From assembly GCF_024700885.2 (NCBI RefSeq), contig NZ_CP117016.1: DNA of 64,000 nt; one strand, given 5' to 3'. Under the pieces are notes generated by a model. It was not told the origin of the DNA. It searched no databases and saw only the letters and a program-made list of their open reading frames with translations. This document shows, one piece after another, positions 1-39,743 of this stretch (the first letter of the stretch is position 1; each line of letters starts with the position of its first letter). The DNA is from Escherichia coli. GTDB lineage: Bacteria; Pseudomonadota; Gammaproteobacteria; Enterobacterales; Enterobacteriaceae. The position numbers and the translations under genes were made by a program.

Positions 1-350
1 GCTGCAAGGAACATAGTGTAGGTTGCCATATGCGAGGCAGGGAAAAAAAGTGTACAACCACCAATATACAGCGTCAGGCCAATTAAAATTGCCACCTTAT
101 AACTGGTCTTTTTAATCACAAGGGATGCTGGTATTGCAATTAAAAAATAACCTCCATAAAATGCGCTCTGCACCAATGCTGAAGCAAAGTTACTTAGCGA
201 AAATACACTTTTGAATTGAGTGATTAATATGTCATTTAATGCAGCTGCGCATCCCCATAGCGGGAATAAACACGATAACAAAATAAACTGGAACAAGGGA
301 GTCTTATTCAGATATCCATCAGGCATCTGAATGATGTTTTTATCGTTCAT
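1..350 (-). CDS. deoP: Deoxyribose permease (MFS, FucP-like), N-terminal part; gene continues past window start
   Basis: Minus-strand ATG at 350 gives MNDKNIIQMPDGYLNKTPLFQFILLSCLFPLWG..., FucP-like TM segments; lies 27 bp downstream of deoK. Confidence 0.65.
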   Translation of the reverse strand, partial: MNDKNIIQMPDGYLNKTPLFQFILLSCLFPLWGCAAALNDILITQFKSVFSLSNFASALVQSAFYGGYFLIAIPASLVIKKTSYKVAILIGLTLYIGGCTLFFPASHMATYTMFLA

Positions 351-377
351 AGTGCTACCTTTAACTGTGCAGGATGA

Positions 378-1298
378 TTATTCGTTTAAGGTTAAAAATT
401 CATTAAATTGTTCAATACTCGGATAAGATGATTGCGTACCTTTCCCTGTGACGCTGAAAGCGGCAAAGAGAGCGGCTTTTTTCAAAGCGGCTTCAACATC
501 ACCGCTTTGAACATAATAATGGGAAAAGCAACCAATAAATGCGTCACCAGCGCCACTAGTATCAACAGCATTTACTTTGAATGCAGGAACATGGACTTCC
601 TGATCGCGGGTCATCCATAATGCGCCTTTTTCGCTCATGGTAACAATAATATTGTTCAGCCCTTTATCAACTAACGAACGTGCGGCCAAACGAATATGAT
701 CATAAGTATCAACCGACATACCGGTTAATATTTCCAGTTCTGTTTCATTCGGGATAAAGAAATCACATTTGCAGGCATAAGACATATCTAACTCACGCAA
801 TGCCGGAGCCGGATTTAATAACACTTCAATACCATTTATCTTACCAAACTCAATCGCGTGGTAAACTGTTTCCAGTTGAACTTCCAGTTGTAAAACGATC
901 AATTTGCATTTTTTCAGATCTTCTGCAGCTCGATCGATATCTTCCGGGGAAAGAAATTTATTCGCTCCCTTAATTATTAATATACTATTGCTCGAGTTGG
1001 CATTAACAAAGATCGGTGCAACACCACTGCTGGTACAGGGGACCTTCTCAACATAAGTGGTATTAATTCCCCATGATTCAAGATTACGAATAGTATTATC
1101 CGCAAAAATATCATCACCTACTTTAGTCAGCATCAGGACTTTTGAATTCAATTTAGCCGCCGCCACCGCTTGATTAGCACCTTTCCCACCACATCCGATT
1201 TTGAAGGCAGGTGCTTCCAGAGTTTCTCCTTCTTTAGGCATCTGATTAGTGTAAGTAATGAGATCCACCATATTGGAACCAATAACTGCAATGTCCAT
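378..1298 (-). CDS. deoK: Deoxyribokinase, ribokinase/PfkB family (306 aa)
   Basis: MDIAVIGSNMVD... with GG motif (KIGCGGKGANQA) and C-terminal DTSGAGDAF anion-hole motif; start taken at internal ATG with AGAGG RBS. Confidence 0.8.
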   Translation of the reverse strand: MDIAVIGSNMVDLITYTNQMPKEGETLEAPAFKIGCGGKGANQAVAAAKLNSKVLMLTKVGDDIFADNTIRNLESWGINTTYVEKVPCTSSGVAPIFVNANSSNSILIIKGANKFLSPEDIDRAAEDLKKCKLIVLQLEVQLETVYHAIEFGKINGIEVLLNPAPALRELDMSYACKCDFFIPNETELEILTGMSVDTYDHIRLAARSLVDKGLNNIIVTMSEKGALWMTRDQEVHVPAFKVNAVDTSGAGDAFIGCFSHYYVQSGDVEAALKKAALFAAFSVTGKGTQSSYPSIEQFNEFLTLNE

Positions 1299-1603
1299 TT
1301 CACTACCTCTTATAAACTTTCGCATAACAATGGTATTTAAATAACATTAGCATGTTACTTTTGCATCATTTGTGACTGAGATCGCGATTAGCACATCAAC
1401 CCGATGTTTATTTAATAGACTTCCAGTCTCATCACTCAGGCCAACACTATCTAATCATAAGCAACCTAACAAGATTAGTGCCCAAAACTCAGCAGCCTAT
1501 ACCCTTTTCATTTCAAAGGGTCGGTCGTATAGTATGGTAATGAAAACAATGTTTACTAACGCCAAAATGTTATTTTTATAACATTCTTACGGAGAGAGAG
1601 TTG

Positions 1604-2386
1604 ATGGAAACGAAGCAAAAAGAGCGTATCCGACGTTTGATGGAACTGCTTAAGAAAACTGACAGAATCCATTTGAAAGACGCAGCGCGAATGCTGGAAG
1701 TTTCTGTAATGACTATTCGTCGCGATCTCCATCAGGAAGATGAACCTCTGCCACTGACCCTACTGGGTGGCTATATTGTAATGGTGAATAAACCCGCGCC
1801 ATCCATGCCAGTAATCCATGACGTTCCAAAAAATCATCGTGATGACTTACCTATTGCAATTCTGGCTGCCGGAATGGTTAATGAAAATGATCTGATCTTC
1901 TTTGATAATGGCCAGGAGATACCACTCGTTATAAGCATGATCCCGGATGCAATCACCTTCACCGGCATCTGTTACTCACATCGCGTCTTTGTTGCGTTGA
2001 ATGAAAAGCCTAATGTAACAGCAATACTTTGTGGTGGTACGTATCGTGCCAGAAGTGATGCTTTTTACGATGCCAGTAACTCTTCGCCATTAGACTCTCT
2101 CAATCCGCGAAAAATATTTATTTCCGCCAGCGGTGTGCATAATCACTTTGGCGTCAGCTGGTTTAACCCTGAAGATCTTGCCACTAAGCGTAAAGCGATG
2201 AACCGTGGACTACGGAAAATTTTGCTCGCCCGCCACGCGTTGTTCGATGAAGTGGCCTCTGCCAGCCTTGCACCGATCTCTGCATTTGACGTTCTGATTA
2301 GCGATCGTCCGTTACCGGCAGATTATGTTACGCACTGCCAGAATGGTTCTGTAAAGATCATTACACCTGATTCAGAAGACGAATGA
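1604..2386 (+). CDS. deoQ: DeoR-family transcriptional regulator, divergent from deoK
   Basis: N-terminal HTH (RIRRLMELLKKTDRIHLKDAARMLEVSVMTIRRDL) plus sugar-binding-type C-domain; GGAGAGAG RBS before ATG 1604. Confidence 0.75.
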   Translation: METKQKERIRRLMELLKKTDRIHLKDAARMLEVSVMTIRRDLHQEDEPLPLTLLGGYIVMVNKPAPSMPVIHDVPKNHRDDLPIAILAAGMVNENDLIFFDNGQEIPLVISMIPDAITFTGICYSHRVFVALNEKPNVTAILCGGTYRARSDAFYDASNSSPLDSLNPRKIFISASGVHNHFGVSWFNPEDLATKRKAMNRGLRKILLARHALFDEVASASLAPISAFDVLISDRPLPADYVTHCQNGSVKIITPDSEDE

Positions 2387-3431
2387 CTTACTGAAAAAAC
2401 ACCACAATCTTGTTAAACATCGTCGGATTGGACTGATTACGTTGCACTTTCACCACATATTCCAGCTTATCTATTTGGCTTATCACCTACTCCAGACGCT
2501 GGTCATCCTTGACCAGTAGCCAGATATGGCTTTTGTCGCAGTCCTGAATCGGCAGGCAGAGAATGTCTTCAACGTTAAGAGCGCGACGGGCAAAAGCCCA
2601 CAAAGGTGAGTCATTACACCCGGATGGTAAACAGGCACTTCCTTGTTGTAGAAGCCGTTATATTGCCCATAATGTCTGGGTTTTTAATGCATACTGGGTA
2701 ACAACCGGACGAATCTTCGAATATCACTGGCGCTGCCAGCCGGTTTGAATTCATCTCACAACCCTGCATAGAGCGAATCTCCTGCCTGCACGTCACTCCA
2801 CTCCATGGTATCAACTTCACACTCTTTATCTGCGGCTAGCTTCAGCCACCAGATAAGCATCGACTATGAAAGATGAGCCATGACAACATAACGTTGGTAA
2901 CGCTCTGACGCCTTAATGGAAGATGCCTGCCACCATAGGGAATGTAAACGACTGAAGTGTGGCCTTTAATGCCGTGAACGGCTCATGGTCTCCTGGCACG
3001 GTTGCCGCCCCAACCTGTAACAACATTCCACAGTACAATGTCTGCCAGAGTCAGAGCCTCCCATGCTTGTTGTAGTAACTCTACCAGTTACGAACATCCT
3101 TCCTCAAAATTGTTGTCATATCTCGCATGGAAGAAAAGATCCTGGCTAAGGAGCAACACACAACGTATTGCGGAACTTGCATATTTTTCCTGTAACTAGT
3201 GTATTACCACATATGGTAATAGCTACCTGTGTGGTTTCGCTGGATAGCAAGGGGATTTATTCGCAAGTAAAATGCCTGATAAAATACACGAATCTAGTAA
3301 TCATCAATATTTACTCTGGTCGAATGACGCGTGAAAGTGGACGGCCAACAGACGCAGTCAGTGATCTACAGCCTGTTGAATAAAACCCCGGATGCTTCCC
3401 CCGATTCTGCAAGTAATACTTCGGTTATTTG

Positions 3432-3537
3432 CACTATTTTATCCCTGTTGAATTTGGTTAAGCCGGTGCAGACGCGCCGGGAAACGCACACCTGAACCGG
3501 CACAATAAAATACAATACAACCCCCTGTTACTGGAGA
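3432..3537. repeat. 106-bp sequence, identical second copy at 17603-17708
   Basis: Exact match read by eye between the two loci. Confidence 0.85.
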
Positions 3538-3544
3538 AATGCCT

Positions 3545-3838
3545 GCGCCGGGGTCCGATATGGCAGTATTGTTGCAGCCTGCGGCATGGCTCAGGGGATG
3601 GATTTGATGGGCAATATGGCTCCGTTTATTCTGCGTGGTGTCACGCTGAAAGGGATTGATAGCGTCATGTTCGCGAAAGAGAAAAGAGCAGCAATCTGGC
3701 AACAGGCGGTATAGTATTTGCCAGAGTCCAGAATGGATAGTCTCACTACCGTTTATCCGCTCAGTGACGCCATCACTGTGGCTGAAAAACTTCTGAGTGG
3801 CGGAATTCGCGGTCGTGCAGTCATTCAATATAGCTAAT
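3545..3838 (+). pseudogene. C-terminal fragment of a YhdH/AcuI-like quinone oxidoreductase
   Basis: Translation ...VAACGMAQGMDLMGNMAPFILRGVTLKGIDSVMFAKEKRAAIWQQAV(stop)...LSGGIRGRAVIQYS matches the MDR oxidoreductase C-terminus; no N-terminal part, internal stop. Confidence 0.55.
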
Positions 3839-3894
3839 TAGATGGATGCCGAGCTCAGGCTTAGTATAATAAGTTTTAGGGGCTGCGGCCCCTT

Positions 3895-4551
3895 TTACTG
3901 GCCAGTTGTTGCTTCCTGAGAAGACTGATAGCGTACCGAGGTTTTGAAATAGCTCCAGAAGTCGTACACTGGCTCAGTAGAACAATATAGTTTGGAACGC
4001 ATTACCGCACCTTCCCAGCCACTCCAGAAAATAGCCGCCAGTTGTGTATTATTCATATTTGAACTTATTTCGCCTGAAGATAACGCGTCGGACAGGCAGG
4101 CCGCAACAAGTGCCTGCCAGCTCTCAAGAATATTCTGTAGTACTTTAATGAAGGATTGGGGAAGCCCCGGACTCTCCTGCATCATATTTCCAACCAGGCA
4201 GCCGCGGGTAAAATTGTATTTTTTAATCCCCTCACAGGCATCATTGATGAAATTTTCCAGACGTACCATTGGTGTGCAGGATGATTCATGTAGATGTTTT
4301 TTGAGTTTATGCTCGAAGAAACTGTCATAGGCGTTCAGAACGGTCTGAGCATAATCCTCTTTACTCTTAAAGTAGTAATAAAATGAGCCTTTAGGGACAT
4401 TGGCATTTTTAACAATGGCATCGACTCCCGTCGCAAGAAAACCATTCTGCGTCAGCAGTTCAAGGCCACTGCGGATCAGATCATTACGAGTATCTGCATA
4501 GGTACTTTCTGTCTTTCGCGGCCTTCCCCGGCCACGATTTTCGCCTGTCAT
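3895..4551 (-). CDS. TetR/AcrR-family transcriptional regulator
   Basis: N-terminal TetR HTH (RNDLIRSGLELLTQNGFLATGVDAIVKNANVPKGSFYYYFKSKE); GGAG RBS before internal ATG. Confidence 0.8.
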   Translation of the reverse strand: MTGENRGRGRPRKTESTYADTRNDLIRSGLELLTQNGFLATGVDAIVKNANVPKGSFYYYFKSKEDYAQTVLNAYDSFFEHKLKKHLHESSCTPMVRLENFINDACEGIKKYNFTRGCLVGNMMQESPGLPQSFIKVLQNILESWQALVAACLSDALSSGEISSNMNNTQLAAIFWSGWEGAVMRSKLYCSTEPVYDFWSYFKTSVRYQSSQEATTGQ

Positions 4552-4798
4552 GACCCATCTCCTACATTTTATTAACGCAAAAGAATAAGTGATTTTGCGC
4601 GAGAGCTTCAATCAGTTTATCCCCGCAGTGGCAAAGTGTTCGCTTTTGCCGACTGGACAGTGGCAGTGCCTGTCGCTACTGCGCCATCGCTGAACAGTGC
4701 AGAATTAGCAACGTTTGCTTTTGGCACAAAGCATACGCCCATTCTCACGCGAATGCTTTGCCCTTGACTTGCCAACAACCGAATCGCTTGCTCTGCAG

Positions 4799-6091
4799 CT
4801 ATGTTTTTTTATTAGAATATTCGCCACTAAATAAATTATAATAAGTTGATTTTATTAGATATCTATCAGAATCTATATGGTCAGCACGAGTTGCATGCTC
4901 TAATGTTTCAAATGCCAGGGTATGTGCGGCTTCAGCAAATATCCCTGGCCAACCTTTACTCAGCATCGACAGTCCTTTAAGGACTCTTATCTGAATCTCC
5001 CTCATACTGGCACCATCGCGCGCGACAGGTGAGAAAAAGTCTTCCAGTAGATCGTTATTCTGAAGTGGTGCAACATGTACTGAAGGATATTTCACTTCTA
5101 TTTCATCAGATTTATTCTGCGCGTAAGTGGAAAGTATACGAACACCTCTGCCAATGACATCAATGGCGGTTCCAGGATCGTTCACTGCAGGGGAAAGGGC
5201 CCGGCAGGCTATTTCGGCCATGACGCTAAGACAAAATCGAGGATCCTGAGCAAATGAACGTGCATCCGAGACAATAATCGTCTCAAGTAAATCGGTGCTG
5301 ATTGACGACTCCTGGCCCTGACTCAGGTACAAAACTGGCATGGACGGATGTATGAAACTGCCTGGCTGCGCCACGAGGTATACATGACGGGGATCATTGG
5401 TCAGCAGCTTGCTAAGTTTCACCATATCAATATATTCAACATAGCCAATCTTCTTCGGATAAACTGCAACCGTTCCTTTCGGCTGTTCATTGTTCTCAAG
5501 CCATGGATATCCGCCGAGACAGGGATTTCTTGCTCTCGCAATAAATGTTTCGATGGCCGCCTGTTCTACTTGTGCCGTTGTCTCACCAACCCTCCCCAGA
5601 GAGGTCAAATGCTGTATCCAGCGAAGCAATGTGATGAGGATTAAGGCAATGACAACCAGTGTGACAATGAATAAAATGACTCTCCCCCTTTCTCCATAAG
5701 CTCCCATATTGAGGGCAATAATCCCTACCAGACTGAAGAGAAAAGAACCGATGAAGGTGGCCAGTACATTTTGTGTGGTGACGTCTTCAACAACTAAACG
5801 CGTAGCTCTGGGAGTCACATTAGTAGTGGCTGAACCGTAGGCTGTGACCATGATACTCAGCGAAAATGTGGTCACTGCCAGCATACTCGATGCCAGTATG
5901 TTCAGAATGTTATCGACTGCTTCCGCACCAACCTTCACGGAAACCGACTCAGGTATCATTGATTTAAAAAGAATTGATAAAAGGGCCGTTATTATCGCGA
6001 CAATTGCGAATAACGTTGCCCTGAACCATAGTTTTTTAATTGTCTGCTTCAGCATCCATTTCCAGCGTGAAATCATTCTGCATTCCCTCAT
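4799..6091 (-). CDS. Membrane protein, DUF2254-like; start codon uncertain
   Basis: Several N-terminal TM helices followed by a soluble domain; family assignment from memory. Confidence 0.5.
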   Translation of the reverse strand: MRECRMISRWKWMLKQTIKKLWFRATLFAIVAIITALLSILFKSMIPESVSVKVGAEAVDNILNILASSMLAVTTFSLSIMVTAYGSATTNVTPRATRLVVEDVTTQNVLATFIGSFLFSLVGIIALNMGAYGERGRVILFIVTLVVIALILITLLRWIQHLTSLGRVGETTAQVEQAAIETFIARARNPCLGGYPWLENNEQPKGTVAVYPKKIGYVEYIDMVKLSKLLTNDPRHVYLVAQPGSFIHPSMPVLYLSQGQESSISTDLLETIIVSDARSFAQDPRFCLSVMAEIACRALSPAVNDPGTAIDVIGRGVRILSTYAQNKSDEIEVKYPSVHVAPLQNNDLLEDFFSPVARDGASMREIQIRVLKGLSMLSKGWPGIFAEAAHTLAFETLEHATRADHIDSDRYLIKSTYYNLFSGEYSNKKT

Positions 6092-6138
6092 ATTGCGGCC
6101 GGGATAATAATTGCCGCCCCCAGGACGGCATGTTGCTA

Positions 6139-8142
6139 TTAACGAACCAGGTGCAGGAAGTGCAGATGTTTTTCGTACTGGTCCAGTATGTCATTAATCA
6201 GCTGTTCCTGGTTCCAGCCCATCACATCATAATTTTGACCGCCTTCTTTGAGATAAACCTCAGCGCGATAATATCGATGTTGTTCAGTCTGCTGCTCATC
6301 ATTATCCATTGCGGCGAGCGCGAAGGTCGGTGAGATATACCCGCGAAGCCTCACTTCATATATAAAATTCAGCTCGTTGCCCAAATCGACTTCAAGACGA
6401 ATACGATCGTCGACTGCATCACTAATGTGGCTTATCGTCCCCTGCTTGTTCAGTTCCTCCTGAACCAGCGTCATGGCGGGCTGGATAACGTCGTCCATAA
6501 AACGTTTCACAAGAGATCGCTTCGGCAGATACGCGATATTGCGTAACCTTCTCTGCCAAGGAATTGGGTTACGTGCAGCCGTAGGAGCAATTGTCGCCAT
6601 GCTCAGGCTTTCACGCTTGGTCAAATCCCGGCGCAAAGCTTTTAAAAGTCCGTATATAGATATTAGTAAGATCACTGAGAAGGGCAATGCACTCGCTATT
6701 GTCACCGTTTGCAGCGCACTTAGCCCTCCGGCAAGGAGAAGCGCAATTGCAACAATGCCCATGAGCGAGGCCCAGAATATTCGCTGCCAGACGGGTGTGT
6801 TTGCCACTCCACCTGATGCCAGAGTATCCACAACCATTGCCCCCGAATCAGCAGACGTTACAAAGAAGACGATGACCATCGCCATTGCAATGAATGACAG
6901 CACAGAAGAGAACGGGAAATGCTCCAGGAAATTAAACAGGGCCAGCGCCACATCCTGCTGAACAGTATTGGCGAGGTCTGTGGCCCCCTGGTTCATAATG
7001 AGATAGATCGCGCTGTTACCAAACACCGTCATCCACATTAGCGTAAAACCCGCGGGAACAAACAGCACGCCGGTGACAAACTCGCGAATGGTTCGCCCGC
7101 GGGAGACTCGTGCGATGAACATCCCCACAAACGGCGACCATGAAAGCCACCATCCCCAGTACAGTAATGTCCAGCCCCCCAGCCAGTTGCTCGACTTGGG
7201 CTCATACGCGTAAAGGTTGAACGTTTTACTCACCAGTTCCGAAAGATAACCGCCCGTATTTTCCACAAATGACTTCAGCAGAAGCACGGTTGGTCCCAGA
7301 CACAGGACCAGCGCCAGGAGCAACAAAGCCAGACCCAGATTGAGTTCAGACAGGATACGTATTCCCTTATCCAGACCGGACACCACTGAAATCGTCGCTA
7401 ACCCCGTGATGACCACGATCAGAATTACCTGCACCGTTTCATTGATGGGCACCCCGAAAAGATGGTTCAAACCGGCATTCACCTGCAAAACACCGTAACC
7501 CAGTGATGTCGCAACGCCAAAGACCGTGCCTATAACAGCGAAAATATCAACCGCATGTCCTACAGGTCCGTATATGCGATCGCCAATAATGGGATAGAGT
7601 GCGGAGCGCAGAGTTAAAGGCAGACCGTGACGGTAACTGAAGAACGCCAGAATCAGCGCCACAATGGCATAAATTGCCCATGCGTGCAGTCCCCAGTGGA
7701 AAAAGGTCAGACGCATTGCTTCCTTAGCTGCCGCAACGGTTTCTGGAGTGCCAACGGGTGGCGAAAGATAATGCATTACAGGTTCGGCAACGCCAAAGAA
7801 CATCAGGCCGATCCCCATCCCTGCCGAAAAAAGCATCGCAAACCAGGAGTGGTAGCTGAAATCAGGCTGCGCATGGTCCGGGCCCAGCTTGATATCACCG
7901 TAGCGTGAGAGTCCAAGGAACGTGACACTCAGTAAAATCAGGGCCACAGCAAGGATGTAGAACCAGCTGGCATTCGTGAAGATTTGTTGCTGAAGTAGTT
8001 TAAAATTTTTGTCGGCGACATCCGGGAATACGGCGGCAAAGGCGACAAGAAGGAAAATTAGCAAAGCAGATGTAAAGAATACCGCTTTGTTAATCTGACT
8101 TGTAGACTTCTTTGGGATTGTATCATTTTCACTCATAATCAT
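6139..8142 (-). CDS. BCCT-family transporter (BetT-like) with long cytoplasmic C-terminal tail
   Basis: BCCT signature WTLLYWGWWLSWSPFVGMFIARVSRGRTIREF and BetT-like length (667 aa). Confidence 0.8.
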   Translation of the reverse strand: MIMSENDTIPKKSTSQINKAVFFTSALLIFLLVAFAAVFPDVADKNFKLLQQQIFTNASWFYILAVALILLSVTFLGLSRYGDIKLGPDHAQPDFSYHSWFAMLFSAGMGIGLMFFGVAEPVMHYLSPPVGTPETVAAAKEAMRLTFFHWGLHAWAIYAIVALILAFFSYRHGLPLTLRSALYPIIGDRIYGPVGHAVDIFAVIGTVFGVATSLGYGVLQVNAGLNHLFGVPINETVQVILIVVITGLATISVVSGLDKGIRILSELNLGLALLLLALVLCLGPTVLLLKSFVENTGGYLSELVSKTFNLYAYEPKSSNWLGGWTLLYWGWWLSWSPFVGMFIARVSRGRTIREFVTGVLFVPAGFTLMWMTVFGNSAIYLIMNQGATDLANTVQQDVALALFNFLEHFPFSSVLSFIAMAMVIVFFVTSADSGAMVVDTLASGGVANTPVWQRIFWASLMGIVAIALLLAGGLSALQTVTIASALPFSVILLISIYGLLKALRRDLTKRESLSMATIAPTAARNPIPWQRRLRNIAYLPKRSLVKRFMDDVIQPAMTLVQEELNKQGTISHISDAVDDRIRLEVDLGNELNFIYEVRLRGYISPTFALAAMDNDEQQTEQHRYYRAEVYLKEGGQNYDVMGWNQEQLINDILDQYEKHLHFLHLVR

Positions 8143-8246
8143 TTATTCCATTAATTAAATTCGCACTGGATAGAAGGTACTACCTCTCACAAAGTAGCAA
8201 AGTTCAACTGGCTATGCGGCGTTAATCGGAATGCATGGTGGAATGT

Positions 8247-9493
8247 TGAGGTGTACTGGCAATAGCGGACACTACCATTTGTTCTTTTTTTAAGCAGCCA
8301 TCTGATGATATTTTTCCCTGAAGGCTGCCGGGGAGATATTCCCCAGACGAGAGTGACGACGCTGACGATTGTAGAAAATCTCAATGTATTCCCGTATTAC
8401 TGAGATGGCTTCATCCCGGTTATTAAAACGATAGTGGCTCAGGCTCTCATTTTTCAGCGTTCCCCAGAAGCTTTCCATCGGAGCGTTGTCGTAACAGTTA
8501 CCTTTACGCGACATTGATGTTTTCAGACCAAACTGCTCCTGTATGACACGGTAATCGTATGCGCAGTACTGTGAACCTCGATCAGAGTGGTGGATTAGCC
8601 CGGCAGGTGGGCGCTGGCTCCTGAGCGCCATAAACAGGGCTTTACCTGTCAGCTCTTTTGTCATGCGCTCTCCCATGGCGTAGCCGACAATTTCGCACGT
8701 ATAAACATCTTTGATGCCAGCGAGGTACAACCATCCCTCCTGTGTGGCAACATACGTCAGGTCCGCCACCCAGACCTGATTTGGTGCTGTAGGAGCGAAC
8801 GTCTGGTTCAGCAGATTTGGCGCAACTGGCAGATTGTGGTTCGAGTTCGTAGTCGCTCTGAACTTGCGTTTCTGCTTACAGCGTAGCCTTAGCTCCTTAC
8901 GAAGACGTGCCAGTCGGTCACGACCAACGATGATGCCATTCTCTGCCAGCTCCGTCTGGAGCTGCCGGGTTCCATATGTTTCGCGAGTGCGGATATGCGC
9001 CACCTTAATCTCCAGTTTTAGCCGCTCATCACTTTGTTTTCTGTCTGAGGGTTCATGCTGTACCCAGTTGTAATAACCGCTCCTGGATACACCAAATACC
9101 TGACACATCGCTTCAATGGGAAATTGTTGTCGCCATTGTTCGATTAACGCGTATTTTTCAGCGACTCCTGTGCAATTTAATATATCTCGCTCAAGGCGAG
9201 CTTCATTTAACGCCTTACGCAGTTGCAGAATTTCAGATTCCAGTTCAGCCACCGTGCGGGAACCAGGAGTACCGAGCCCTTTTCTGGCGGCGGTAACCCA
9301 TTGTCCTAAAGTGCCTTCAGGAAGAGATAATCGGGAAGCACCTTCACTGATCGAAAGTTGATTTTCAAGAACCGTTCTGACAGCTTCGGCTTTGAACTCT
9401 TTAGAGTAACGTTGGGTTTTTCTGCTCATTATTAGCTCCTTCTGATGCCATTCTATTTCAGGAAGGAGTGTCCGTTAAACTCAGGCTACCTCA
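8247..9493 (-). mobile_element. IS3-family insertion sequence (IS600-like), about 1.25 kb
   Basis: Imperfect terminal inverted repeats TGAGGT...CGGACACT at both ends flanking the transposase ORF. Confidence 0.7.
8290..9429 (-). CDS. IS3-family transposase, OrfA and OrfB fused in one 379-aa frame
   Basis: OrfA-like HTH and leucine zipper (LQLRKALNEARLERDIL) continuous with DDE OrfB (DLTYV, HSDRGSQY, GNCYDNAPMESFW). Confidence 0.85.
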   Translation of the reverse strand: MSRKTQRYSKEFKAEAVRTVLENQLSISEGASRLSLPEGTLGQWVTAARKGLGTPGSRTVAELESEILQLRKALNEARLERDILNCTGVAEKYALIEQWRQQFPIEAMCQVFGVSRSGYYNWVQHEPSDRKQSDERLKLEIKVAHIRTRETYGTRQLQTELAENGIIVGRDRLARLRKELRLRCKQKRKFRATTNSNHNLPVAPNLLNQTFAPTAPNQVWVADLTYVATQEGWLYLAGIKDVYTCEIVGYAMGERMTKELTGKALFMALRSQRPPAGLIHHSDRGSQYCAYDYRVIQEQFGLKTSMSRKGNCYDNAPMESFWGTLKNESLSHYRFNNRDEAISVIREYIEIFYNRQRRHSRLGNISPAAFREKYHQMAA

Positions 9494-9575
9494 TTGGTTC
9501 CCACTACTTATTTGGTGGACACCACTTTGTCTAATTCGTCAGATTCTGACCAGACGGTTCAGGCTGTACGCTTAC
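9494..9575. repeat. 82-bp IS66-family terminal fragment (solo end), identical to 17521-17602
   Basis: Ends in revcomp GTAAGCGTACAGC; identical to the left end of the IS66 copy at 15315-17602. Confidence 0.75.
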
Positions 9576-9609
9576 AAACAACTAGTGGAAATACTTGTAC
9601 TTTATAATT

Positions 9610-10554
9610 TCAAGGGTACGGGTCCGCTTCGTTTGATTTGCGTGTTTTTAACAATTTTAAAACCCAGACATACTGTTCCGGATGTGGCCCCACCAAAATT
9701 TCCACTGTTTTGTTCATTTGTCGGGCAATCATTTTATTGTCCGCGCTGGCAATGCAAGCATCCATTGGTGGCCGAATTTCAATAGTCAGGAGATGTTTTT
9801 TTTCATCATAAACCGGGAAAAGTGGTATAATCATAGCCTGACTGATGTTCATCAGACGTCCAATGATTGGTAATGTCGCTTTATAGGTCGCAAAAAAATC
9901 AGCAAATTCACTGTATTCAGGACCATGATCCTGATCTGGGAGGTAATATCCCCAGTATCCCTGGCGTACTGACTGAATAAATGGTTTTATCCCATCCTCC
10001 CGGGCATGTAAGCGCCCCCCGAATTTACGCCGTACTGAATTCCAGACATAATCAATCACTGGATTTCGTTGCTGATGAAACATGGCGGCCATTTTTTTTC
10101 CCTGAGCTGCCAGCAACATTGCAGGAATATCCACGCTCCAGCCATGGGGAACCAGAAAAATCACATTTCTATTATTGTGTCGAATTTCCTCAAGAATTTC
10201 GAGGCCTTTCCAGAACACTCGTTTCTGGAACTTTTCCGGACCACGAATTGCCAGTTCTGCCATCATCACTATGGATTGCAATGCTGTGGCAAACATTTTG
10301 TCGACAATTATTTCCCGTTCTGTATCACTCTTTTCTGGGAAACAAAGCGATAAATTAATCGTCGCCCTGCGACGAGCTTTTTTGCTCAATCTGCCCACCC
10401 AACGCCCTATTTTTGCCAAGACAGGATCTCTGAATGAAGGGGGAAACATTGAAATACCTGCAATCATTCCCAAAAGGAACCATGTAGACCAGTAAACAGG
10501 GGAAAGGTAATTTTTCTTAAATTCAGGAATAAACTCAGATTTATATTTTTTCAT
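9610..10554 (-). CDS. Lipid A secondary acyltransferase, LpxM/MsbB family (msbB2-like paralog)
   Basis: Lauroyl/myristoyl acyltransferase motifs (FLVPHGWSVD, YLPDQDHGPE); virK fragment immediately upstream as in shf-virK-msbB2 modules. Confidence 0.8.
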   Translation of the reverse strand: MKKYKSEFIPEFKKNYLSPVYWSTWFLLGMIAGISMFPPSFRDPVLAKIGRWVGRLSKKARRRATINLSLCFPEKSDTEREIIVDKMFATALQSIVMMAELAIRGPEKFQKRVFWKGLEILEEIRHNNRNVIFLVPHGWSVDIPAMLLAAQGKKMAAMFHQQRNPVIDYVWNSVRRKFGGRLHAREDGIKPFIQSVRQGYWGYYLPDQDHGPEYSEFADFFATYKATLPIIGRLMNISQAMIIPLFPVYDEKKHLLTIEIRPPMDACIASADNKMIARQMNKTVEILVGPHPEQYVWVLKLLKTRKSNEADPYP

Positions 10555-10618
10555 TATTTAGTGCGAATGCCTCTACCAAAATTATCATTACTGTTTTATT
10601 CAGAGAATACATCAAACC

Positions 10619-11233
10619 TTAATTTAAATTCTGATGTTCTGAGTGTACAGGATATGCATCCAAAGAGCGGATAGTAGTTTCATGGATATAATCCAGCAAA
10701 GCGTATCGTTTTCGGTACTCAGAGCGTTTTTTACTGGCTATATCGCTTAGCGGCTTTCGAATCACCTGGGTTGGTAATCTGTACCAGTCACCACAGGTTT
10801 TTCCTGCTACAGACTCCCAGAAATCACTATAGACCGCAACAAAGGTTTTGCGTTTCTGATACCAGTATCTCAATTGCCGGAAAACATGACTGTGCTCACT
10901 GACTGCCAGACACTCAGAGATATTGCAAGCTTTCATCAACGCACAAAATGCTTCAAAAATAATCCGTTTTGGGAAAATCCCATAACAGGCCCGGGTTGCG
11001 CACCGAATAACATCAGGTCCGGTATTTTTAGGGGCTCCCTGTAATCCGCCAATAAAAGCAATGTGTCCATTTTGAGTCAGAATGACTGAAAATGTTAACC
11101 GGGCAATAACTGTTTTATTGTAAAACAATGACAACATCAACTCTCCTTCCCGGTCAAAACCACTGGGAGAACACTGGATATCAAAATTCTCTCCATCTTT
11201 CCCGATGAATTGGACTAATGATACCGATTTTTG
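10619..11233 (-). pseudogene. virK: virK-like (DUF535) gene, C-terminal part only, cut by IS1
   Basis: Open frame runs from the IS1 boundary (...FIGKDGENFDIQCSP...) to the stop at 10619; N-terminal half absent. Confidence 0.55.
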
Positions 11234-11288
11234 GGTAATGCTGCCAACTTACTGATTTAGTGTATGATGGTGATTTTAAGGTGCTTGC

Positions 11289-11564
11289 GTGGCTTCCATT
11301 TCCATCAGATGTCCTTCCTGCTCCGCTACTGAAGGCGTGGTGCGTAACGGCAAAAGCACTGCCGGACATCAGCGCTATCTCTGCTCTCATTGCCGTAAAA
11401 CATGGCAACTACAGTTCACTTACACCGCCTCTCAGCCCGGTACGCACCAGAAAATCATTGATATGGCCATGAATGGCGTCGGATGTCGCGCCAGTGCACG
11501 CATTATGGGCGTTGGCCTCAACACGGTTTTACGTCACTTAAAAAACTCAGGTCGCAGTCGGTAA
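11289..11564 (+). CDS. insA: IS1 InsA
   Basis: [40 protein letters not shown]... Confidence 0.9.
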
Positions 11565-11986
11565 CCTCGCGCATACAACCGGGCAGTGATGTGATTGTCT
11601 GCGCTGAAATGGACGAACAGTGGGGCTACGTCGGTGCTAAATCACGTCAGCGCTGGCTGTTTTACGCGTATGACAGGATACGGAGGACGGTTGTGGCGCA
11701 CGTCTTCGGTGAACGCACTCTGGCCACACTGGAGCGTCTTCTGAGCCTGCTGTCGGCCTTTGAGGTCGTGGTATAGATGACGGATGGCTGGCCGCTGTAT
11801 GAATCACGCCTGAAGGGAAAGCTGCACGTTATCAGCAAGCGTTACACTCAGCGCATTGAGCGACATAATCTGAATCTGAGACAACATCTGGCAAGGCTGG
11901 GACGGAAGTCACTGTCGTTCTCAAAATCGGTGGAGCTGCATGACAAGGTCATCGGGCATTATCTGAACATAAAACACTATCAGTAA
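11483..11986 (+). pseudogene. insB: IS1 InsB frame with premature stop (TAG at 11774-11776)
   Basis: Copy 2 reads ...VVIWMTDGW (TGG); copy 1 reads ...VVV(stop)MTDGW (TAG). Confidence 0.85.
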
Positions 11987-12071
11987 GTTGGAGTCATTAC
12001 CTCCTCCCGAACTCAAAGCTATCATACAGATAATTACTGGTTAACCCTATATAGGGCATTTTAAAGTGTTG

Positions 12072-12408
12072 TGATCTTACCCAGCAATAGTGGACACGCG
12101 GCTAAGTGAGTAAACTCTCAGTCAGAGGTGACTCACAAGACAAAACAGTTTCAACCAGTAAAAAAACGTAAACACCATTCGCATGAATTTCGTAGTTAAG
12201 ATCTGAAGCTTGCAGAATGCATCGGTGTTACTGCCGGAGTCCGTGAACTTAGTCTGCATGAATCACCACAGCTTTACATCTGTCGCAGTAAACAGCAAAA
12301 TCAGCAAACTTACTTAATTATATCGAGTGCGATTACAATCGCTGGCGATGGTACAGTTGGTGTGGCGGTCTCAGTCCGGAACAATTTGAAAATCAGAATC
12401 TCACTTAA
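12072..12408 (+). mobile_element. IS3 remnant with large internal deletion (left end and orfA 5' joined to orfB 3' end; right IR missing)
   Basis: TGATCTTACCCAGCAATAGTGGACACGCGGCTAAGTGAGTAAACTCTCAGTCAGAGGTGACTCACA then ...[33 protein letters not shown] tail. Confidence 0.7.
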
Positions 12409-12746
12409 AACGGCATCCATTTTACAAAAGATGGCCGTCTGTGTATTTATAATGAATACCTTCTACATGTTTAGAGTGCATAATCCACGACAAGGCGATA
12501 TCCTAAAAATTAGCTAGCAGGCAACTTTGATGGCATAGATAATGTTTTTAGTAAAAAAGAGTTGACTTAATATAATACAGCCTCTTCCTACATAAGAAGG
12601 AATGTGCTCACAAAAAAAAACATTAGTCTGCTTCCTGTTCTTACAATAATCAGTATTATGTATTTTATTTATATAGCAAAATATGCTTGTTACACCTGTC
12701 ATAATTAGGCATGGTAAAATTATTGACTGAACCCTGGGGGAGAAAG

Positions 12747-13004
12747 ATGCACAGTGATTATTATAATATGGTTTTTGGTGAAAAATTGGCCAATATTTTA
12801 TATGAAGCTAACTCTCAATTTTTTTACGAGAGAAATGTCATAGAAGAGGCAGTCAACGCTTTATTCTGTGAGCGTGAAATAATAAACAACAAGAACATAA
12901 TAAAGAAGCTGATGTTCTTTTTGTCAGATGTTAATCACACCAAGAAAGATGTTGTTCAGAGCGCACTTAATATTATCATTGACATTACATCAGGTGATAT
13001 TTGA
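12747..13004 (+). CDS. Hypothetical protein (85 aa), AT-rich
   Basis: ORF with GGGGGAG RBS; no recognisable family. Confidence 0.3.
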   Translation: MHSDYYNMVFGEKLANILYEANSQFFYERNVIEEAVNALFCEREIINNKNIIKKLMFFLSDVNHTKKDVVQSALNIIIDITSGDI

Positions 13005-13264
13005 GATTTTACATAAAAGATAATCTCTCAAGGAGTCTTATCTGAAAACGAAATATATAGTCCCTCTCGTTTTGTAATATCGATTGGCTTTGTTGAATCG
13101 GTTACGTACCCCGGAGCCGGTCATATTTTCAGGTAATACACACGCTTTCAGACATTTCGGCTTTCGTCATTTTGGTATCATGGGCATAGCTTCTGCTACC
13201 TGACCATCATAATCACGCAGCTTCAGTGAAGCAGTGACCACCTGTTTAACCCGGTGTATCGTTA

Positions 13265-13465
13265 TGATCTTATCCAGCAATAATGGACACGCGGCTAAGT
13301 GAACCGCCCCGGGTTTCCTGGAGAGTGTTTTATCTGTGAACTCAGGCTGCCAGATCATCGTTTCCGATGGAAGCATAATAAGCTTTTTCTGCTTCTGCCG
13401 GTGGGATATGGCCCTGCCTTTCCAGCAATCGTCGATTGTTATACCAGTCCACCCACGTGAGTGTG
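13265..13465 (-). mobile_element. IS3-family right-end remnant (transposase C-terminus plus terminal IR)
   Basis: Minus strand encodes ...QYDELTTLTWVDWYNNRRLLERQGHIPPAEAEKAYYA then IR ending ...TGTCCATTATTGCTGGATAAGATCA. Confidence 0.65.
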
Positions 13466-13754
13466 GTCAGCTCATCATACTGACACGTGCATTACCCCTA
13501 CCGCGATAATGCAACCGTACAATATAGGGCGTTTCCTAAACGCAGCCCTCATCACTCCAATCCAACAAGACACAGCATTTTTGATCACGAAGAAAGACAA
13601 ATAATTTCCGTAAATGTTTCCGTTGTTACAAATAACAACAGTGTTTTACATTTCTTTGGCCTCAGGCCCGCGCATGTTGCCATTCGATGTCATTTTCCTG
13701 ACTCGTTTCTTCTTTATGGTGTAGTGTGATCTTCACTTTATGGATGCTAACAAT

Positions 13755-15113
13755 ATGAAAAGAAAAATTATTCCCGTGCTAATCGGTTGTACGCTCTCTT
13801 TCTCTGCCCTGGCGGCACAACCTACGGCTGAGCGCTATGTCGTCAGTTTTCCAGAAGGCACGCACGTGAACTACGCCGGCGCATTTGCCAGTGCATTCCC
13901 GAACGGCCTTCCGGTTGGGATAGGTTCTGGCCTGCTGTTCACCGGTAAACAGGGCGATGCCCTGACATTCGCAACCATTACCGATCGCGGTCCGAACGCG
14001 GATTCACCGAAAGAGGGGAAAAACGAAACTAAAATTTTCGTTACGCCAGATTTCGCGCCGCTGCTGATGACGATTCGTGTACAAAACGGCAAAGCGGAGG
14101 CCATCGATCCCCGTCCTCTGCATGACGATAAAGGCGCGATCAACGGTCTGCCGCTGGCAAGCGACGTGATTGGCTCCACCAATGAAGTGGCCTTCAGCGA
14201 CACGTTACATAGACTGAAGGGGGATAATCGCGGGCTGGATACGGAAGGGATCACTCCGGATGGTAAAGGAGGTTACTGGCTGTGCGATGAGTATGGCCCG
14301 TTCCTGATTAACATCGACAGTAAAGGGAAAATCCTGGCAATCCACGGTCCGCAGGCGGCGGAAGAGGAAAAAGCGATTGCGGGCGGTTTGCCAAATATCC
14401 TCAAATGGCGTCAGGCGAACCGCGGCTTTGAAGGCCTCACCCGTATGCCGGACGGGCGTATTATTGTCGCCGTGCAAAGTACGCTGGATATCGACGCTAA
14501 GAGCAAGAAAAAGGCGCTGTTTACGCGTCTGGTGAGCTTCGATCCGGCAAGCGGAAAAACCGCGATGTACGGTTATCCCATCGACAGCGCGGCCTACAGC
14601 AAAAACAGCGACGCTAAAATCGGAGACATCGTGGCGCTCGATAACCAGCACATCCTGCTGATCGAACAGGGAAGAGATAAAAACAACAGAATGCGTAACC
14701 TGATTTACGAGGTCGATCTCAATAAGGCGAGCGACCTGTCAGGCTTCGACAAGCCGGGTGAGTATCCGGAGTTTGATGATGAGAAAACCCTGTCACAGCG
14801 CGGCATTACCCTTGCGCAGAAAACGCAGGTTGTTGATCTGCGCTCCTTGGGCTGGCAGCAGGAGAAGGCTGAAGGGTTGGCGCTGATCGACAGCAAAACG
14901 CTGGCGGTGGCGAACGATAACGACTTTGGCGTGAAGGTGGCGATGCAACATCCGGTCGAGGGCAAGACATTCAAGGATTATCGGGTGAACGCGGAAGGAA
15001 AGCTGACGCTTGACGACAAGCAGGTTGAAACGACCCTCAGAGTGAAGCCACTGGAGAAACCGGAGTCTGACAGTGAACTGTGGATTGTGACGCTGCCGGA
15101 AGCGTTGAAATAA
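13755..15113 (+). CDS. Secreted phytase-like / esterase-like beta-propeller protein (452 aa)
   Basis: Signal peptide (MKRKIIPVLIGCTLSFSALAAQP); repeated D-x-G/beta-strand blocks; family assignment from memory. Confidence 0.5.
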   Translation: MKRKIIPVLIGCTLSFSALAAQPTAERYVVSFPEGTHVNYAGAFASAFPNGLPVGIGSGLLFTGKQGDALTFATITDRGPNADSPKEGKNETKIFVTPDFAPLLMTIRVQNGKAEAIDPRPLHDDKGAINGLPLASDVIGSTNEVAFSDTLHRLKGDNRGLDTEGITPDGKGGYWLCDEYGPFLINIDSKGKILAIHGPQAAEEEKAIAGGLPNILKWRQANRGFEGLTRMPDGRIIVAVQSTLDIDAKSKKKALFTRLVSFDPASGKTAMYGYPIDSAAYSKNSDAKIGDIVALDNQHILLIEQGRDKNNRMRNLIYEVDLNKASDLSGFDKPGEYPEFDDEKTLSQRGITLAQKTQVVDLRSLGWQQEKAEGLALIDSKTLAVANDNDFGVKVAMQHPVEGKTFKDYRVNAEGKLTLDDKQVETTLRVKPLEKPESDSELWIVTLPEALK

Positions 15114-15351
15114 GTTTATAAGGTACGGACAGCAGTATCGCTTAGTTTTTCAAATTCATGTATGTGAACAATATTGGGGTTCCGGCGTAGACCCCCAATG
15201 AAAGCGTCACCACGTGAAAACATGCCTGCACGGTTTACACGTCATCCCATGGTGGCAGCCGGTTAACTTTCCTGCGCCACCAGTGGAAAAAGGCCATAAG
15301 CAGTCCGAACAAAAGTAAGCGTACAGCGAGGGCCGTATTGACGGGGATGTG

Positions 15352-16736
15352 TTATTCAGCTGGCAGTGCTATGCGCCACGGAAGCAGTTCGCTGACCCGG
15401 TTGACCGGCCAGTCTGCTATGACGCCAGGCACATGGCGAAGGTAGCTTTCTGGATCCACGTCATTCAGTTTGCACGTCCCGATCAGGCTGTACAGTAGCG
15501 CTCCCCGCTCACCACCATGGCCAGAGCCGAAGAACAGGGTCTTCATCTTTTCACGCAACCAGCTTTCCAGGGATTTCAACAGCGGTTTCGTTTTTCGCTG
15601 ACGTTCAGCAAGCCGCTGCTCTGCCGGCATTCCCCTTATATCCGCCTCTATGGCGTACAACTGACCGATCTGCTCCAGGGCTTCTTCCGTCAGTGCTGAC
15701 GGGATGCGGACGTGCACATCGTGGATCTTTCGGCGGGCATGAGCCCAGCAGGCAGCTTCCGTTATCCCACCATTGCGATACAGCTCGTTGAACCCGGCGT
15801 ACGCATCCGCTTGCAGCACACCGCTGAAGCAAGCAAGATGAGTCTGCGGATGGATGCCTTTTCTGTCCGGGCTGTAAGCGAACCTCACTGCAGGTGCCAA
15901 CGCTGACCCGGCATTGCGGTCATCACGAACATACGCCCACAACCGCCCGGTCTTCGTCTTCTTATTACCCGGCAGCAGTACCTGGACCGGGGTATCATCG
16001 GCATGGAGTTTGCCGTCAGTCATGACATAGCCATGAAGCGCCTCTTCCAGCGGAGACAGCAGCCGGCAGCATGCATCCACCCAGCCCGACAGCAGTGAAC
16101 GGCTCAGCTCCACACCTTGCCGGCCGTATATTTCTGACTGGCAATACAGCGGGGTGTGCTCTGCATACTTCGAGGTCAGCACGCGGGCCAGCAGCCCCGG
16201 TCCGGCGATACCCCGCTCGATGGGCCGCGAAGGTGCAGGTGCCTGCACGATGGCATCGCACTGAGTACAGGCATGTTTTTCCCGTACCGTCCGGATAACC
16301 CGGAAGGCGCTACGCATCAACTCCAGCTGTTCGGCGGTATCCTCGCCCAGATAGCTCAGTGAACCGCCGCAGTTCGGGCAGCACGGCGCCGCAGGCAACA
16401 GTCGCTTTTCGTCACGGGGTAGTGATTCAGGGAACGGCTTACGGGTGCGGGTCTGACGCAACGGACGCTGTACTGCCGGGTCATACACCCTACCAGTCAG
16501 CGTATCGCTCTCTTTCTGAAGCCGGTTCAGATCGGCTTCCATTTGTGCGATACGGCGGGAGACTTTTTCGGAACGACTGCCGAAGTTCATCCGGCGGAGT
16601 TTATCCAGCTGCGCCTGCAGATGTCTATTTCGCGCTCCCGGTTGCTCAGCTTTTCCTGCAGGGCGTGGATCAGCGCTTCCTGTTCGGCCAGGCGCTGTTT
16701 CAGCAGGAAGATGTCGTCAGAAGAGATTTCGTTCAT
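15352..16736 (-). pseudogene. IS66 TnpC transposase with frameshift near the N-terminus
   Basis: MNEISSDDIFLLKQRLAEQEALIHALQEKLSNRERE... continues in another frame as ...QLDKLRRMNFGSRSEK...; shift lies around 16600-16630. Confidence 0.75.
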
Positions 16737-16785
16737 AAGCCCGTATTTTACCGGGCTTATTCTGTGACAACCAGGATAAAGAGAT

Positions 16786-17133
16786 TTACAGCATGGTCAG
16801 GGAGGTCAGCAGCCGCTTGGGCTGTCGCCAGTCGATACCTTCCAGCAGCATCGCCAGCTGCGCCTGCGTAAGGAACACTTTGCCATCACGGGCTGACGGC
16901 CAGGCGAAGCGCCCACGCTCCAGCCGTTTGGTCAGGAGGCACAGTCCGTCACCGGTGGACCACAGCAGTTTAACCTGACTGCCGCTGCGGCCCCGGAAAA
17001 TGAAAACATGGCCGGACATGGGATCGTCTTTCAGCGCCGTCTGTACTTTCGCAGCCAGGCCGTTGAAGCCATTTCTCATATCGGTGATACCGGCAACCAG
17101 CCAAATTTTGGTCCCGGAAGGTAACGGGATCAT
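16786..17133 (-). CDS. IS66 Orf2 (TnpB)
   Basis: MIPLPSGTKIWLVAGITDMRNGFNGLAAKVQ... Confidence 0.85.
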   Translation of the reverse strand: MIPLPSGTKIWLVAGITDMRNGFNGLAAKVQTALKDDPMSGHVFIFRGRSGSQVKLLWSTGDGLCLLTKRLERGRFAWPSARDGKVFLTQAQLAMLLEGIDWRQPKRLLTSLTML

Positions 17134-17468
17134 CGCTTCAGTTCCTGTATCAGCAGAGTCAGGAGCTTTTCGCTGACATTGCCATTGAAGCGGAGCGTCC
17201 CGTGCCGGAACGTTACCTCACAGCTGATACTGAGGGTTTCCGGGTCCTCTGCGAGCGATTCTGGCTGTTCGGCAGCTGCATCGGGAGTCACAGGAAGTAG
17301 CTGGGGGCTCTCTGAAGAAGGTAATAGCAGCTTTCCCTCGCGCCATTGTTGTCGCCATTTGAACAACAGATTGGCGTTAATGCCATTTTCAAGAGCAAGT
17401 TTTGAGATGGATATCCCGGGTTCACAGGAGGCAGCAACGAGCTGCTGTTTAAATTCGGGAGGATAATT
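17130..17468 (-). pseudogene. IS66 Orf1 (TnpA) without a canonical in-frame ATG start
   Basis: Frame encodes ...PEFKQQLVAASCEPGISISKLALENGINANLLFKWRQQWREGKL but is preceded by TGA with no ATG. Confidence 0.6.
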
Positions 17469-17602
17469 AGGGCAGCCTTTTCACCTGCCGGGAGTCACAT
17501 TTTTCTGCATATCTGACACTTTGGTTCCCACTACTTATTTGGTGGACACCACTTTGTCTAATTCGTCAGATTCTGACCAGACGGTTCAGGCTGTACGCTT
17601 AC

Positions 17603-17708
17603 CACTATTTTATCCCTGTTGAATTTGGTTAAGCCGGTGCAGACGCGCCGGGAAACGCACACCTGAACCGGCACAATAAAATACAATACAACCCCCTGTT
17701 ACTGGAGA
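17603..17708. repeat. Second copy of the 106-bp sequence at 3432-3537, abutting the IS66 terminus
   Basis: Exact match. Confidence 0.85.
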
Positions 17709-17864
17709 TACGAATGGAATGACGAGGCAGCCTGTCAGTCACAGGGGGCTGTTGGCATAAAATCAACGGAAAGGCCACCAACACCGGAATTAAGCTCCAC
17801 AGTCCCCGCACTGGCAATCCATTCCCGGGAAAGGCATCACCGCAAACTGCTCCGGAGGCAACCA

Positions 17865-25108: not shown

Positions 25109-25227
25109 ACACTCTGCCAGGGGAAATGCCTGATTACATTGCGTTAACCAACTGAAAACATGACACAAACACCTCATGCCCCTCCTGTTTCTCTTGCGTG
25201 ACTGCTCTGCTGTTAATAGAATAAAAC

Positions 25228-25263
25228 GATCGATAAAACAGGTATCGATCGTTACTATCGATC
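25228..25263 (+). promoter_or_regulatory. Three clustered GATC (Dam) sites in the flu leader: probable OxyR/Dam phase-variation switch
   Basis: GATC at 25228, 25247 and 25260, about 220 bp upstream of the flu ATG. Confidence 0.6.
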
Positions 25264-25480
25264 GTTTATAGTGGTTAATGGTCTGCGAAAAGGCAGCTGA
25301 ATCTCTTCATCATGCAGAACGGAATTGCACACAACGGACTGATACTTCTCTGGCGGATGAGAGAGGGGAAGCATTTATGTCCGGGAAAAACCACTTTATC
25401 TGACCATGCTGTTTTGTACCTGCCGGTATCCACATTTGTGGGTACCGGCTTTTTTATTCACCCTCTGTAAGGAAAAGCTG

Positions 25481-36598: not shown

Positions 36599-36603
36599 TT
36601 GAT

Positions 36604-39600: not shown

Positions 39601-39741
39601 GACGTTATCTATATCAATGGCGATCATAACTTACCTACCGCCTTTACTGTTGATGAAGAAGACGGCGAGATTGTTCGTAGCCTGAAAATCCGCCAGATCG
39701 AACCTGAATTCTTGAACCTGATGTTTGCGGAGGAGGTTTAA
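36604..39741 (+). CDS. Large beta-class DNA methyltransferase (N6-adenine/N4-cytosine type; 1045 aa) with about 490-aa N-terminal extension
   Basis: Motif IV HIDPPYNTD (38101-38112) precedes motif I ILDFFAGSGTSG (38951-38977), the order seen in Type III Mod; starts 6 bp after the SNF2 stop. Confidence 0.8.
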   Translation: MKEKIMSKYNELVKKLKEIFQIDRPELDFGIYRILNARADEINDYLDNKLKAKIQSALADAGNANKSELEHQLQLTIKAATDAGVDPADSPKVQELKKQLAAMASGANEHENAVFSHLLTFFSRYYDNGDFISKRRYKGNTYAIPYSGEEVMLHWANKDQYYIKSGENFANYSFKLDDGRKVSFKLLAADTAKDNRKDNELDRCFVLIEPHVRTKIDEEGDEYEQEYKPVEVVKTSSVVDGKLVETEELVIHFEYKAMKKGTKQDALVQSAISTILADKTVQQHWVDLAKRAPTEKNPSRTELERHLTTYTQRNTADYFIHKDLGGFLTNELDFYIKNEVMNLDNVQNAEVFANIEKQLRMIQCLRTVALELIAFLAQIENFQKKLWTKKKFVVSSNYYITMDKISSEFYSEIINNEKIVQEWIELGILDEKPSTSDVELLKFATVNLSHLNGDLRKKILNSINDIDDNVDGVFINGDNYQALNLLKKKYNSVIDCVHIDPPYNTDTSGFLYKNSFKHSSWLSMMDSRLLFVKNLLSENGVFFCHIDENEYERLYLINKQLGLIDAGTIIWDKRNPMNGGSGIAIQHEYTTCFTKNMISINKKNENVLEILEYAKLIKNKYPVINSEAKKKFYDWVTKNKKLTGGEQAYKYIDEKGRVYQSVSLRAPEPRTDKKFYIPLIHPVTGKPCAMPPNGFSRTPETLKDMMDKGDILFGVDETTQPRQKAYLYADAKKQITSIIQDAKKGKTQTTHLGIDFPYCHSTSLYNYLIGSASHNKNEIILDFFAGSGTSGHSVIELNRKDAGSRKYILVEQGEYAQNVTLSRLRKVIFSSNWKDGKAMDSTTGSSHILKVMKIESYEDVLNSLRFEQQKEIKDLFDTVNESVANEYLIKYMLETESKGSLLSTDNFKKPFNYEMDIATDSAGATERKNIDLVETFNYLIGLHVKSIESNIERGYVRVEGMLPTGERTLILWRDCDKIGYEELNKYANRFDLYAKENTFDVIYINGDHNLPTAFTVDEEDGEIVRSLKIRQIEPEFLNLMFAEEV

Positions 39742-39743
39742 GA

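Follow-up and report, generated by a model that had tools for sequence, protein, structure and literature searches.

The region at positions 2387-3544 of the window, by which we mean the whole 64,000-nucleotide stretch of DNA that was analyzed, is very probably ordinary non-functional DNA that decayed at a junction inside an E. coli genomic island, as judged from its sequence. The window is 99.998% identical to the E. coli MLI114 chromosome NZ_CP117013.1 across 48.6 kb and lies in a large genomic island adjoining the nanC/nanM region, with part of the deoxyribose operon at its left end (Table 1). An earlier note on this DNA had described the region as containing no intact gene, and this was borne out: its longest ORFs comprise 71, 68, 65 and 61 codons, and the RefSeq annotation of NZ_CP117013.1 places only an ilvN pseudogene there. 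The note had further read the region as decayed coding sequence at an old insertion or deletion junction, and the data support this, with two junctions, at 2628/2629 and 3537/3538. Its view that the ORFs of 60-70 codons belong to no family holds insofar as these are chance ORFs, but its claim that the stretch has no recognizable family was wrong for about three-quarters of it, since the surrounding DNA contains the tail of ilvN (ilvN′) and a pseudogene of an island-backbone gene family, both recovered by tblastn.

Table 1. Features in and around the region; positions are those of the window unless another locus is named
Feature	Position	Strand	Description
uhpA′ stub and uhpA-ilvN spacer	locus L001, 4576-4716 (left of the window)		next to/downstream of deoX; first ~21 codons of uhpA
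deoK	378-1325	-	deoxyribose operon, at the left end of the window
deoQ	1604-2386	+	DeoR-family regulator of the deoxyribose operon; intact
ilvN′ pseudogene (acetolactate synthase I small subunit)	2388-2628	-	codons ~17-96 and stop
Orphan spacer	2629-2884		~255 nt without assignable origin; holds most of the chance ORF 2614-2820(-)
Backbone pseudogene, 166-182-aa family	~2884-3434	-	start-codon equivalent is GTG 3434-3432
Direct repeat, copy 1 (106 bp)	3432-3537		upstream region of the backbone pseudogene
IS-rich mosaic block (14,065 bp)	3538-17602		between the 106-bp copies
acuI′ (acrylyl-CoA reductase, YhdH/AcuI)	3538-3837	+	last 99 of ~325 codons; forms the left edge of the block
acuR (TetR-family regulator)	3895-4551	-	intact; NF051457, 266 bits (above the 247-bit cut-off)
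Direct repeat, copy 2 (106 bp)	17603-17708		followed by island-backbone zinc-ribbon and Gp2 genes

The first of the two remnants, ilvN′, is convergent with deoQ, and the stop codons of the two are 1 nt apart. It is 91% identical to K-12 ilvN at the nucleotide level and 87% identical over 68 aa at the protein level (tblastn), and the NCBIfam profile PRK08178 aligns with it over positions 24-102 of 102 (134 bits, E 1e-39). Codons 1-16 are missing, and what is left is not a complete, uninterrupted 96-codon frame: one nucleotide has been deleted from the A-run at 2592-2595, and an in-frame CAG has become TAG at 2487-2489. Both lesions are also found in the divergent HM670-type allele of the island. 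ilvN′ does not stand downstream of an ilvB, as tblastn detected no IlvB similarity anywhere in 2300-3950, and a search for ilvB or uhpA remnants inside the region found none. The RefSeq annotation of 2388-2614 varies between an 'acetolactate synthase small subunit' pseudogene and a coding 'ACT domain-containing protein'; the latter call, which occurs sometimes, is spurious.

The presence of an ilvN tail at this position is explained by the arrangement of the operon elsewhere. The earlier note had suggested comparing the flank of the deoK operon in other genomes, and among 52 deoQ loci sampled from other Enterobacteriaceae, an intact ilvN-ilvB pair follows deoQ on the opposite strand in 41, at a distance of about 50 nt or less in 34, and uhpA lies on the far side of the deo cluster. 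The corresponding side in the E. coli island carries a uhpA′ stub together with the uhpA-ilvN spacer, and this whole stretch is 84% identical to K-12; the spacer contains a hairpin and a T-run that look like the ilvBN terminator. The flanking ilvN′ and uhpA′ remnants thus indicate that the cargo is a chromosomal segment of about 4.75 kb, cut within uhpA and within ilvN, and at 2628/2629 this captured segment (uhpA′-deoX deoP deoK deoQ-ilvN′) meets the island backbone. No repeats link the uhpA′ and ilvN′ boundaries of the cargo as they would in a composite transposon. The truncated ends of ilvN and uhpA pinpoint where in the chromosome the deoxyribose operon was taken from; this operon is a fitness factor of pathogenic E. 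coli.

A native donor with deoQ still joined to ilvN-ilvB was sought within E. coli. Two metagenome contigs join an HM670-type deoQ to a B2-type native ilvN-ilvB (OJVA01000027.1, 3461-3718, and OMBO01000503.1, 9765-10022). Their crossovers lie inside stretches of 34 nt and 22 nt that are identical between ilvN′ and ilvN, one of the contigs keeps the pseudogene TAG, and both run out within the deo genes; on its native side OJVA01000027.1 matches ST73-like strains that carry the two loci separately. We therefore rejected these contigs as a native deoQ-ilvN-ilvB donor, and they are probably assembly chimeras arising from the 240-bp, 91-92% identical ilvN′ repeat. deoQ is joined to intact ilvN-ilvB in none of 5426 complete E. 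coli genomes. In metagenome assemblies the ilvN′ repeat seems to give rise to chimeras with the genuine ilvBN locus.

The second remnant belongs to a family of island-backbone proteins of 166-182 aa. It was detected by tblastn with an E value of 2e-17, and its translation gave 26 database matches (best E 2.8e-14), aligning to residues 12-147 of a 166-aa protein with 33-40% amino acid identity; at the nucleotide level it is about 67% identical to intact copies in other E. coli islands. Its frame is not intact, with multiple stops and at least two frame changes. The family carries the precomputed Pfam label PF27752, and RefSeq names its members 'YagK/YfjJ domain-containing' or 'inovirus Gp2'; no match to the family was found in the copies of Pfam and PHROGs that were searched, and a pairwise comparison with a true YagK/YfjJ protein revealed no similarity.

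At 3537/3538 the backbone gives way to the inserted block, which begins with the oxidoreductase fragment that the earlier note had described as containing an internal stop. This fragment does match the AcuI profile NF051456, at positions 227-323 of 325 (E 2.6e-31); the internal stop is the in-frame TAG at 3712-3714. Its score of 108.6 bits falls below the 440-bit curated cut-off, and it is not a full-length, intact AcuI (NF051456, TIGR02823); without its first ~226 codons and with the internal TAG it can therefore produce no enzyme. acuR is normally paired with acuI, and megablast of E. coli genomes revealed no intact acuI beside this acuR. Small pieces of acuI′ are annotated in RefSeq as 'alcohol dehydrogenase' CDSs.

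Besides acuI′ and acuR, the block contains genes for a DUF2254 protein and a BCCT transporter, IS3, lpxM, virK′, IS1, ymgB/ariR, IS fragments, a gene for a phytase-like esterase, and IS66, whose terminal sequence stops exactly at 17602. The two 106-bp copies that flank the block are 100% identical. Strain Rb-3 represents the empty site, as its sequence continues directly from the equivalent of 3537 to that of 17709 with a single 106-bp copy and no block. The structure does not have the form of a simple IS or transposon insertion: the target-site duplication of IS66 is 8 bp, whereas the repeat that flanks the block is 106 bp, and only the right end is IS66, the left end being a truncated acuI. 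The 106-bp duplication with its single IS end is thus no simple transposition, and the duplication is not accounted for by any single standard transposition mechanism. In other strains the right-hand junctions fall at 3094, 3434 and 3473, which identifies the stretch upstream of the pseudogene as a hot spot of rearrangement.

Two further observations concern rearrangement of the island. Strain FDAARGOS_1292 lacks exactly 3095-13296 (10.2 kb), so that the pseudogene at 3094 is joined to an IS3 remnant at 13297; it seems to carry a variant of this island produced by an IS-associated deletion. Within the block, an 82-bp IS66 end fragment is duplicated with 100% identity at 9494-9575 and 17521-17602, the first copy having an IS3-family element on one side and lpxM on the other, a sign of further IS66-mediated rearrangement within the block. 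Elsewhere in the window, the island has what resembles a defence locus at 33707-44658, a cluster of genes for an SNF2-related protein, a large DNA methyltransferase, a DEAD/DEAH helicase and a restriction endonuclease that binds phosphorothioated DNA, and a gathering-level Rfam match to IS102 RNA (RF00124, 74.6 bits) lies at 25226-25462, beside an Ag43 autotransporter gene.

The junctions are shared by many genomes. deoQ is present in 1606 of the 5426 complete E. coli genomes, and in 1543 of these deoQ, ilvN′ and the spacer are contiguous. The 2628/2629 breakpoint, the frameshift and the TAG are common to the two main island alleles, which differ by 7.5% in this fragment; the sharing of the breakpoint and lesions by diverged alleles and the high retention indicate that the junction is old. 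It is extremely improbable that the region is instead a recent deletion or an error of assembly confined to this genome. The two metagenome contigs, built from short reads, do mis-join or recombine across ilvN′, but the same structure occurs in hundreds of independently finished genomes (the exact acuI′ junction in about 549, in addition to the 1543 with the deoQ-ilvN′-spacer arrangement), and the island alleles that share it have diverged by 5-7%; the population data already refute this explanation. The island alleles have diverged unevenly along the region, by about 9-10% in ilvN′ and about 3.6% across 2700-3370. In a comparison of window positions 378-2628 with the HM670 island, deoK was 99.6%, deoQ 95.9% and ilvN′ 92.5% identical. 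The difference between deoK and deoQ in the same pair of alleles leads us to attribute the uneven divergence to a patchwork of recombination, and the sequences suggest a recombination breakpoint between deoK and deoQ, while mild constraint could alternatively underlie the lower divergence across 2700-3370.

Between the two remnants lies the orphan spacer, and the earlier note had held that a conserved small gene or sRNA with homologs mapping to the region would overturn its reading. No such element was found, and it is very unlikely that a functional small protein, in the form of the 68-codon minus-strand ORF, or a small RNA is encoded in the orphan part (about 2629-2900). In favour of such a function, none of the four alleles examined interrupts the 68-codon ORF, not even the HM670-type allele, in which four ORFs of the region are broken, and it is predicted by gene callers in public assemblies; the orphan segment is also less divergent between alleles than ilvN′, and 130 nt of it (2702-2830) have a 74% identical counterpart in a few E. 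coli plasmids, in the unannotated spacer that separates trbC from a helicase gene. This plasmid counterpart, however, contains stops in every frame, and the ORF itself shows 10 amino acid changes in 68 residues from about 15 nucleotide differences, a neutral pattern. The ORF starts with GTG, its Shine-Dalgarno-like motif is badly spaced, and an exhaustive HMMER scan of its 68-aa product against 1.84 billion proteins returned only same-locus alleles and spurious large multi-match proteins. Searches with conceptual plus- and minus-frame translations likewise recovered only the PF27752 family (in the pseudogene part), same-locus alleles and spurious matches, and none of the six conceptual frames of 2600-3560 matched Pfam. 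ProQ/FinO and other neighbours of the intact backbone gene were considered as an origin of 2629-2884 and were rejected, having no similarity to it. At the RNA level, a search of 1-8000 against Rfam 15 at E<=1 brought up only two miRNA matches, both due to chance and outside the region, and the region itself gave no gathering-level match; no sigma-70-like promoter sites were present against 2.8 expected, and the folding z-scores of the spacer were -1.5 and -1.6 on the two strands. In the AL862 island, validated sRNAs map to afa-8 and the integrase, and deoK and deoQ are not mentioned (PMC3326304).

A related proposal, somewhat less improbable than a hidden gene but still unlikely, is that ilvN′ has been kept as the 3′ UTR or terminator region of deoQ, given that no room for a terminator exists before the ilvN stop. 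The stop codons of deoQ and ilvN, 1 nt apart here, are 4 nt apart in other genera, so deoQ transcripts must enter sequence antisense to ilvN, and a weak terminator-like hairpin is located at 2665-2681 on the plus strand, just beyond the ilvN′ boundary; moreover, the deoQ-ilvN′-spacer stretch is retained in 96% of deoQ-positive genomes. Against this, the hairpin has only 5 pairs, and the three weak terminator-like hairpins found, compared with 1.5 expected, do not amount to an enrichment. Physical linkage to a selected operon would explain the retention of ilvN′ equally well, and ilvN′ is the fastest-diverging segment between the island alleles. The preferred reading of the region as decayed junction DNA gives it small functional importance, as dead DNA, and a modest value as a molecular fossil.

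It is as a fossil that the region bears on the source of the operon. That the region has decayed is already largely known, as the ilvN remnant is annotated as a pseudogene in RefSeq, and all that is new, and only mildly so, is that the ilvN and uhpA scars are Escherichia-like. When compared with 18 other genera, ilvN′ reached a maximum identity of 83%, with Pseudocitrobacter and Citrobacter at or below this value and Salmonella arizonae/diarizonae at 77%, against the 91% seen with K-12; of the sites derived relative to the majority of the 18 genera, 11 are common to ilvN′ and K-12 and 2 are confined to K-12. The island deo genes show 75-84% identity to their counterparts in every genus sampled, including Salmonella and Citrobacter, and ilvB and uhpA of E. 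coli have diverged from these genera to an equal extent, which implies that no sampled genus was a recent donor. The Escherichia-like sequence of ilvN′ suggests that the captured segment probably came from a chromosome of the Escherichia lineage, although early gene conversion by the resident ilvN, and not the identity of the donor, could also have produced it. The transfer of the deoK operon to E. coli has been attributed to Salmonella enterica (Bernier-Febreau et al. 2004, as cited in PMC5382810), and the Escherichia-like scars call this accepted origin, as it is given in that citation, into question. We tentatively entertain, without quite favouring it, a fuller account in which the deo operon was lifted from an Escherichia-lineage uhpA-ilvN site and not from Salmonella; it would once have been native, have been lost from the core genome and survive only as island cargo, with a 240-bp ilvN′ repeat still homologous to the resident ilvN and able to mis-join short-read assemblies or, rarely, to recombine.

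Taken together, these observations lead us to propose the following history. The enterobacterial chromosome piece, for which the synteny is directly visible, would have been captured onto the island backbone by cuts at about codon 21 of uhpA and about codon 17 of ilvN, bringing deoX-deoP-deoK-deoQ as cargo. The ilvN tail was separated from its 5′ end, from ilvB and from its promoter, and then acquired the frameshift and the stop before the main island alleles split. The neighbouring backbone gene of the 166-182-aa family, whose lesions can be read where it stands, has decayed in place. Finally, the IS-rich block, the structure of which is observed and the mode of arrival of which we infer, would have been joined immediately upstream of the backbone pseudogene in a sub-lineage that makes up about 10% of complete E. 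coli genomes, leaving the 106-bp duplication. The duplication would most likely reflect an insertion of IS66 at the pseudogene start codon and recombination between related island copies, and not one transposition.

Several parts of the region have counterparts in known systems. The captured segment shares its gene order and its tight convergent deoQ/ilvN junction with the chromosomal uhpA-deoXPK-deoQ-ilvN-ilvB locus of Salmonella, Citrobacter, Raoultella, Leclercia and others, and the spacer with the putative ilvBN terminator still adjoins deoX on the island; the E. coli segment differs in being cut inside uhpA and ilvN and in being borne on an island. The backbone pseudogene recalls the modules of other E. 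coli islands, where its intact relatives sit among YagK/YfjJ-type ('inovirus Gp2'), zinc-ribbon, Hha and AlpA-like HTH genes, and the backbone of the window restarts at 17709 with zinc-ribbon and Gp2 genes, but the copy of the family in the window is dead. Similarly, the acrylate detoxification pair acuR-acuI is represented here by an intact acuR with an adjacent acuI′ that matches the C-terminal 97 positions of its family, whereas the N-terminal part of acuI is lost and the remainder is interrupted. A further likeness is to the deoK operon on the E. coli pathogenicity islands described by Bernier-Febreau et al. 2004 (as cited in PMC5382810), such as the AL862 PAI and ROD 40 of NCTC 86, which have the deoX/P/K/Q operon, an island beside the vpe PTS locus and horizontally acquired cargo in common with the window. 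The literature as cited gives the operon a Salmonella origin, whereas the ilvN′ that ends it in the window is 91% identical to E. coli and 77% to Salmonella arizonae/diarizonae.
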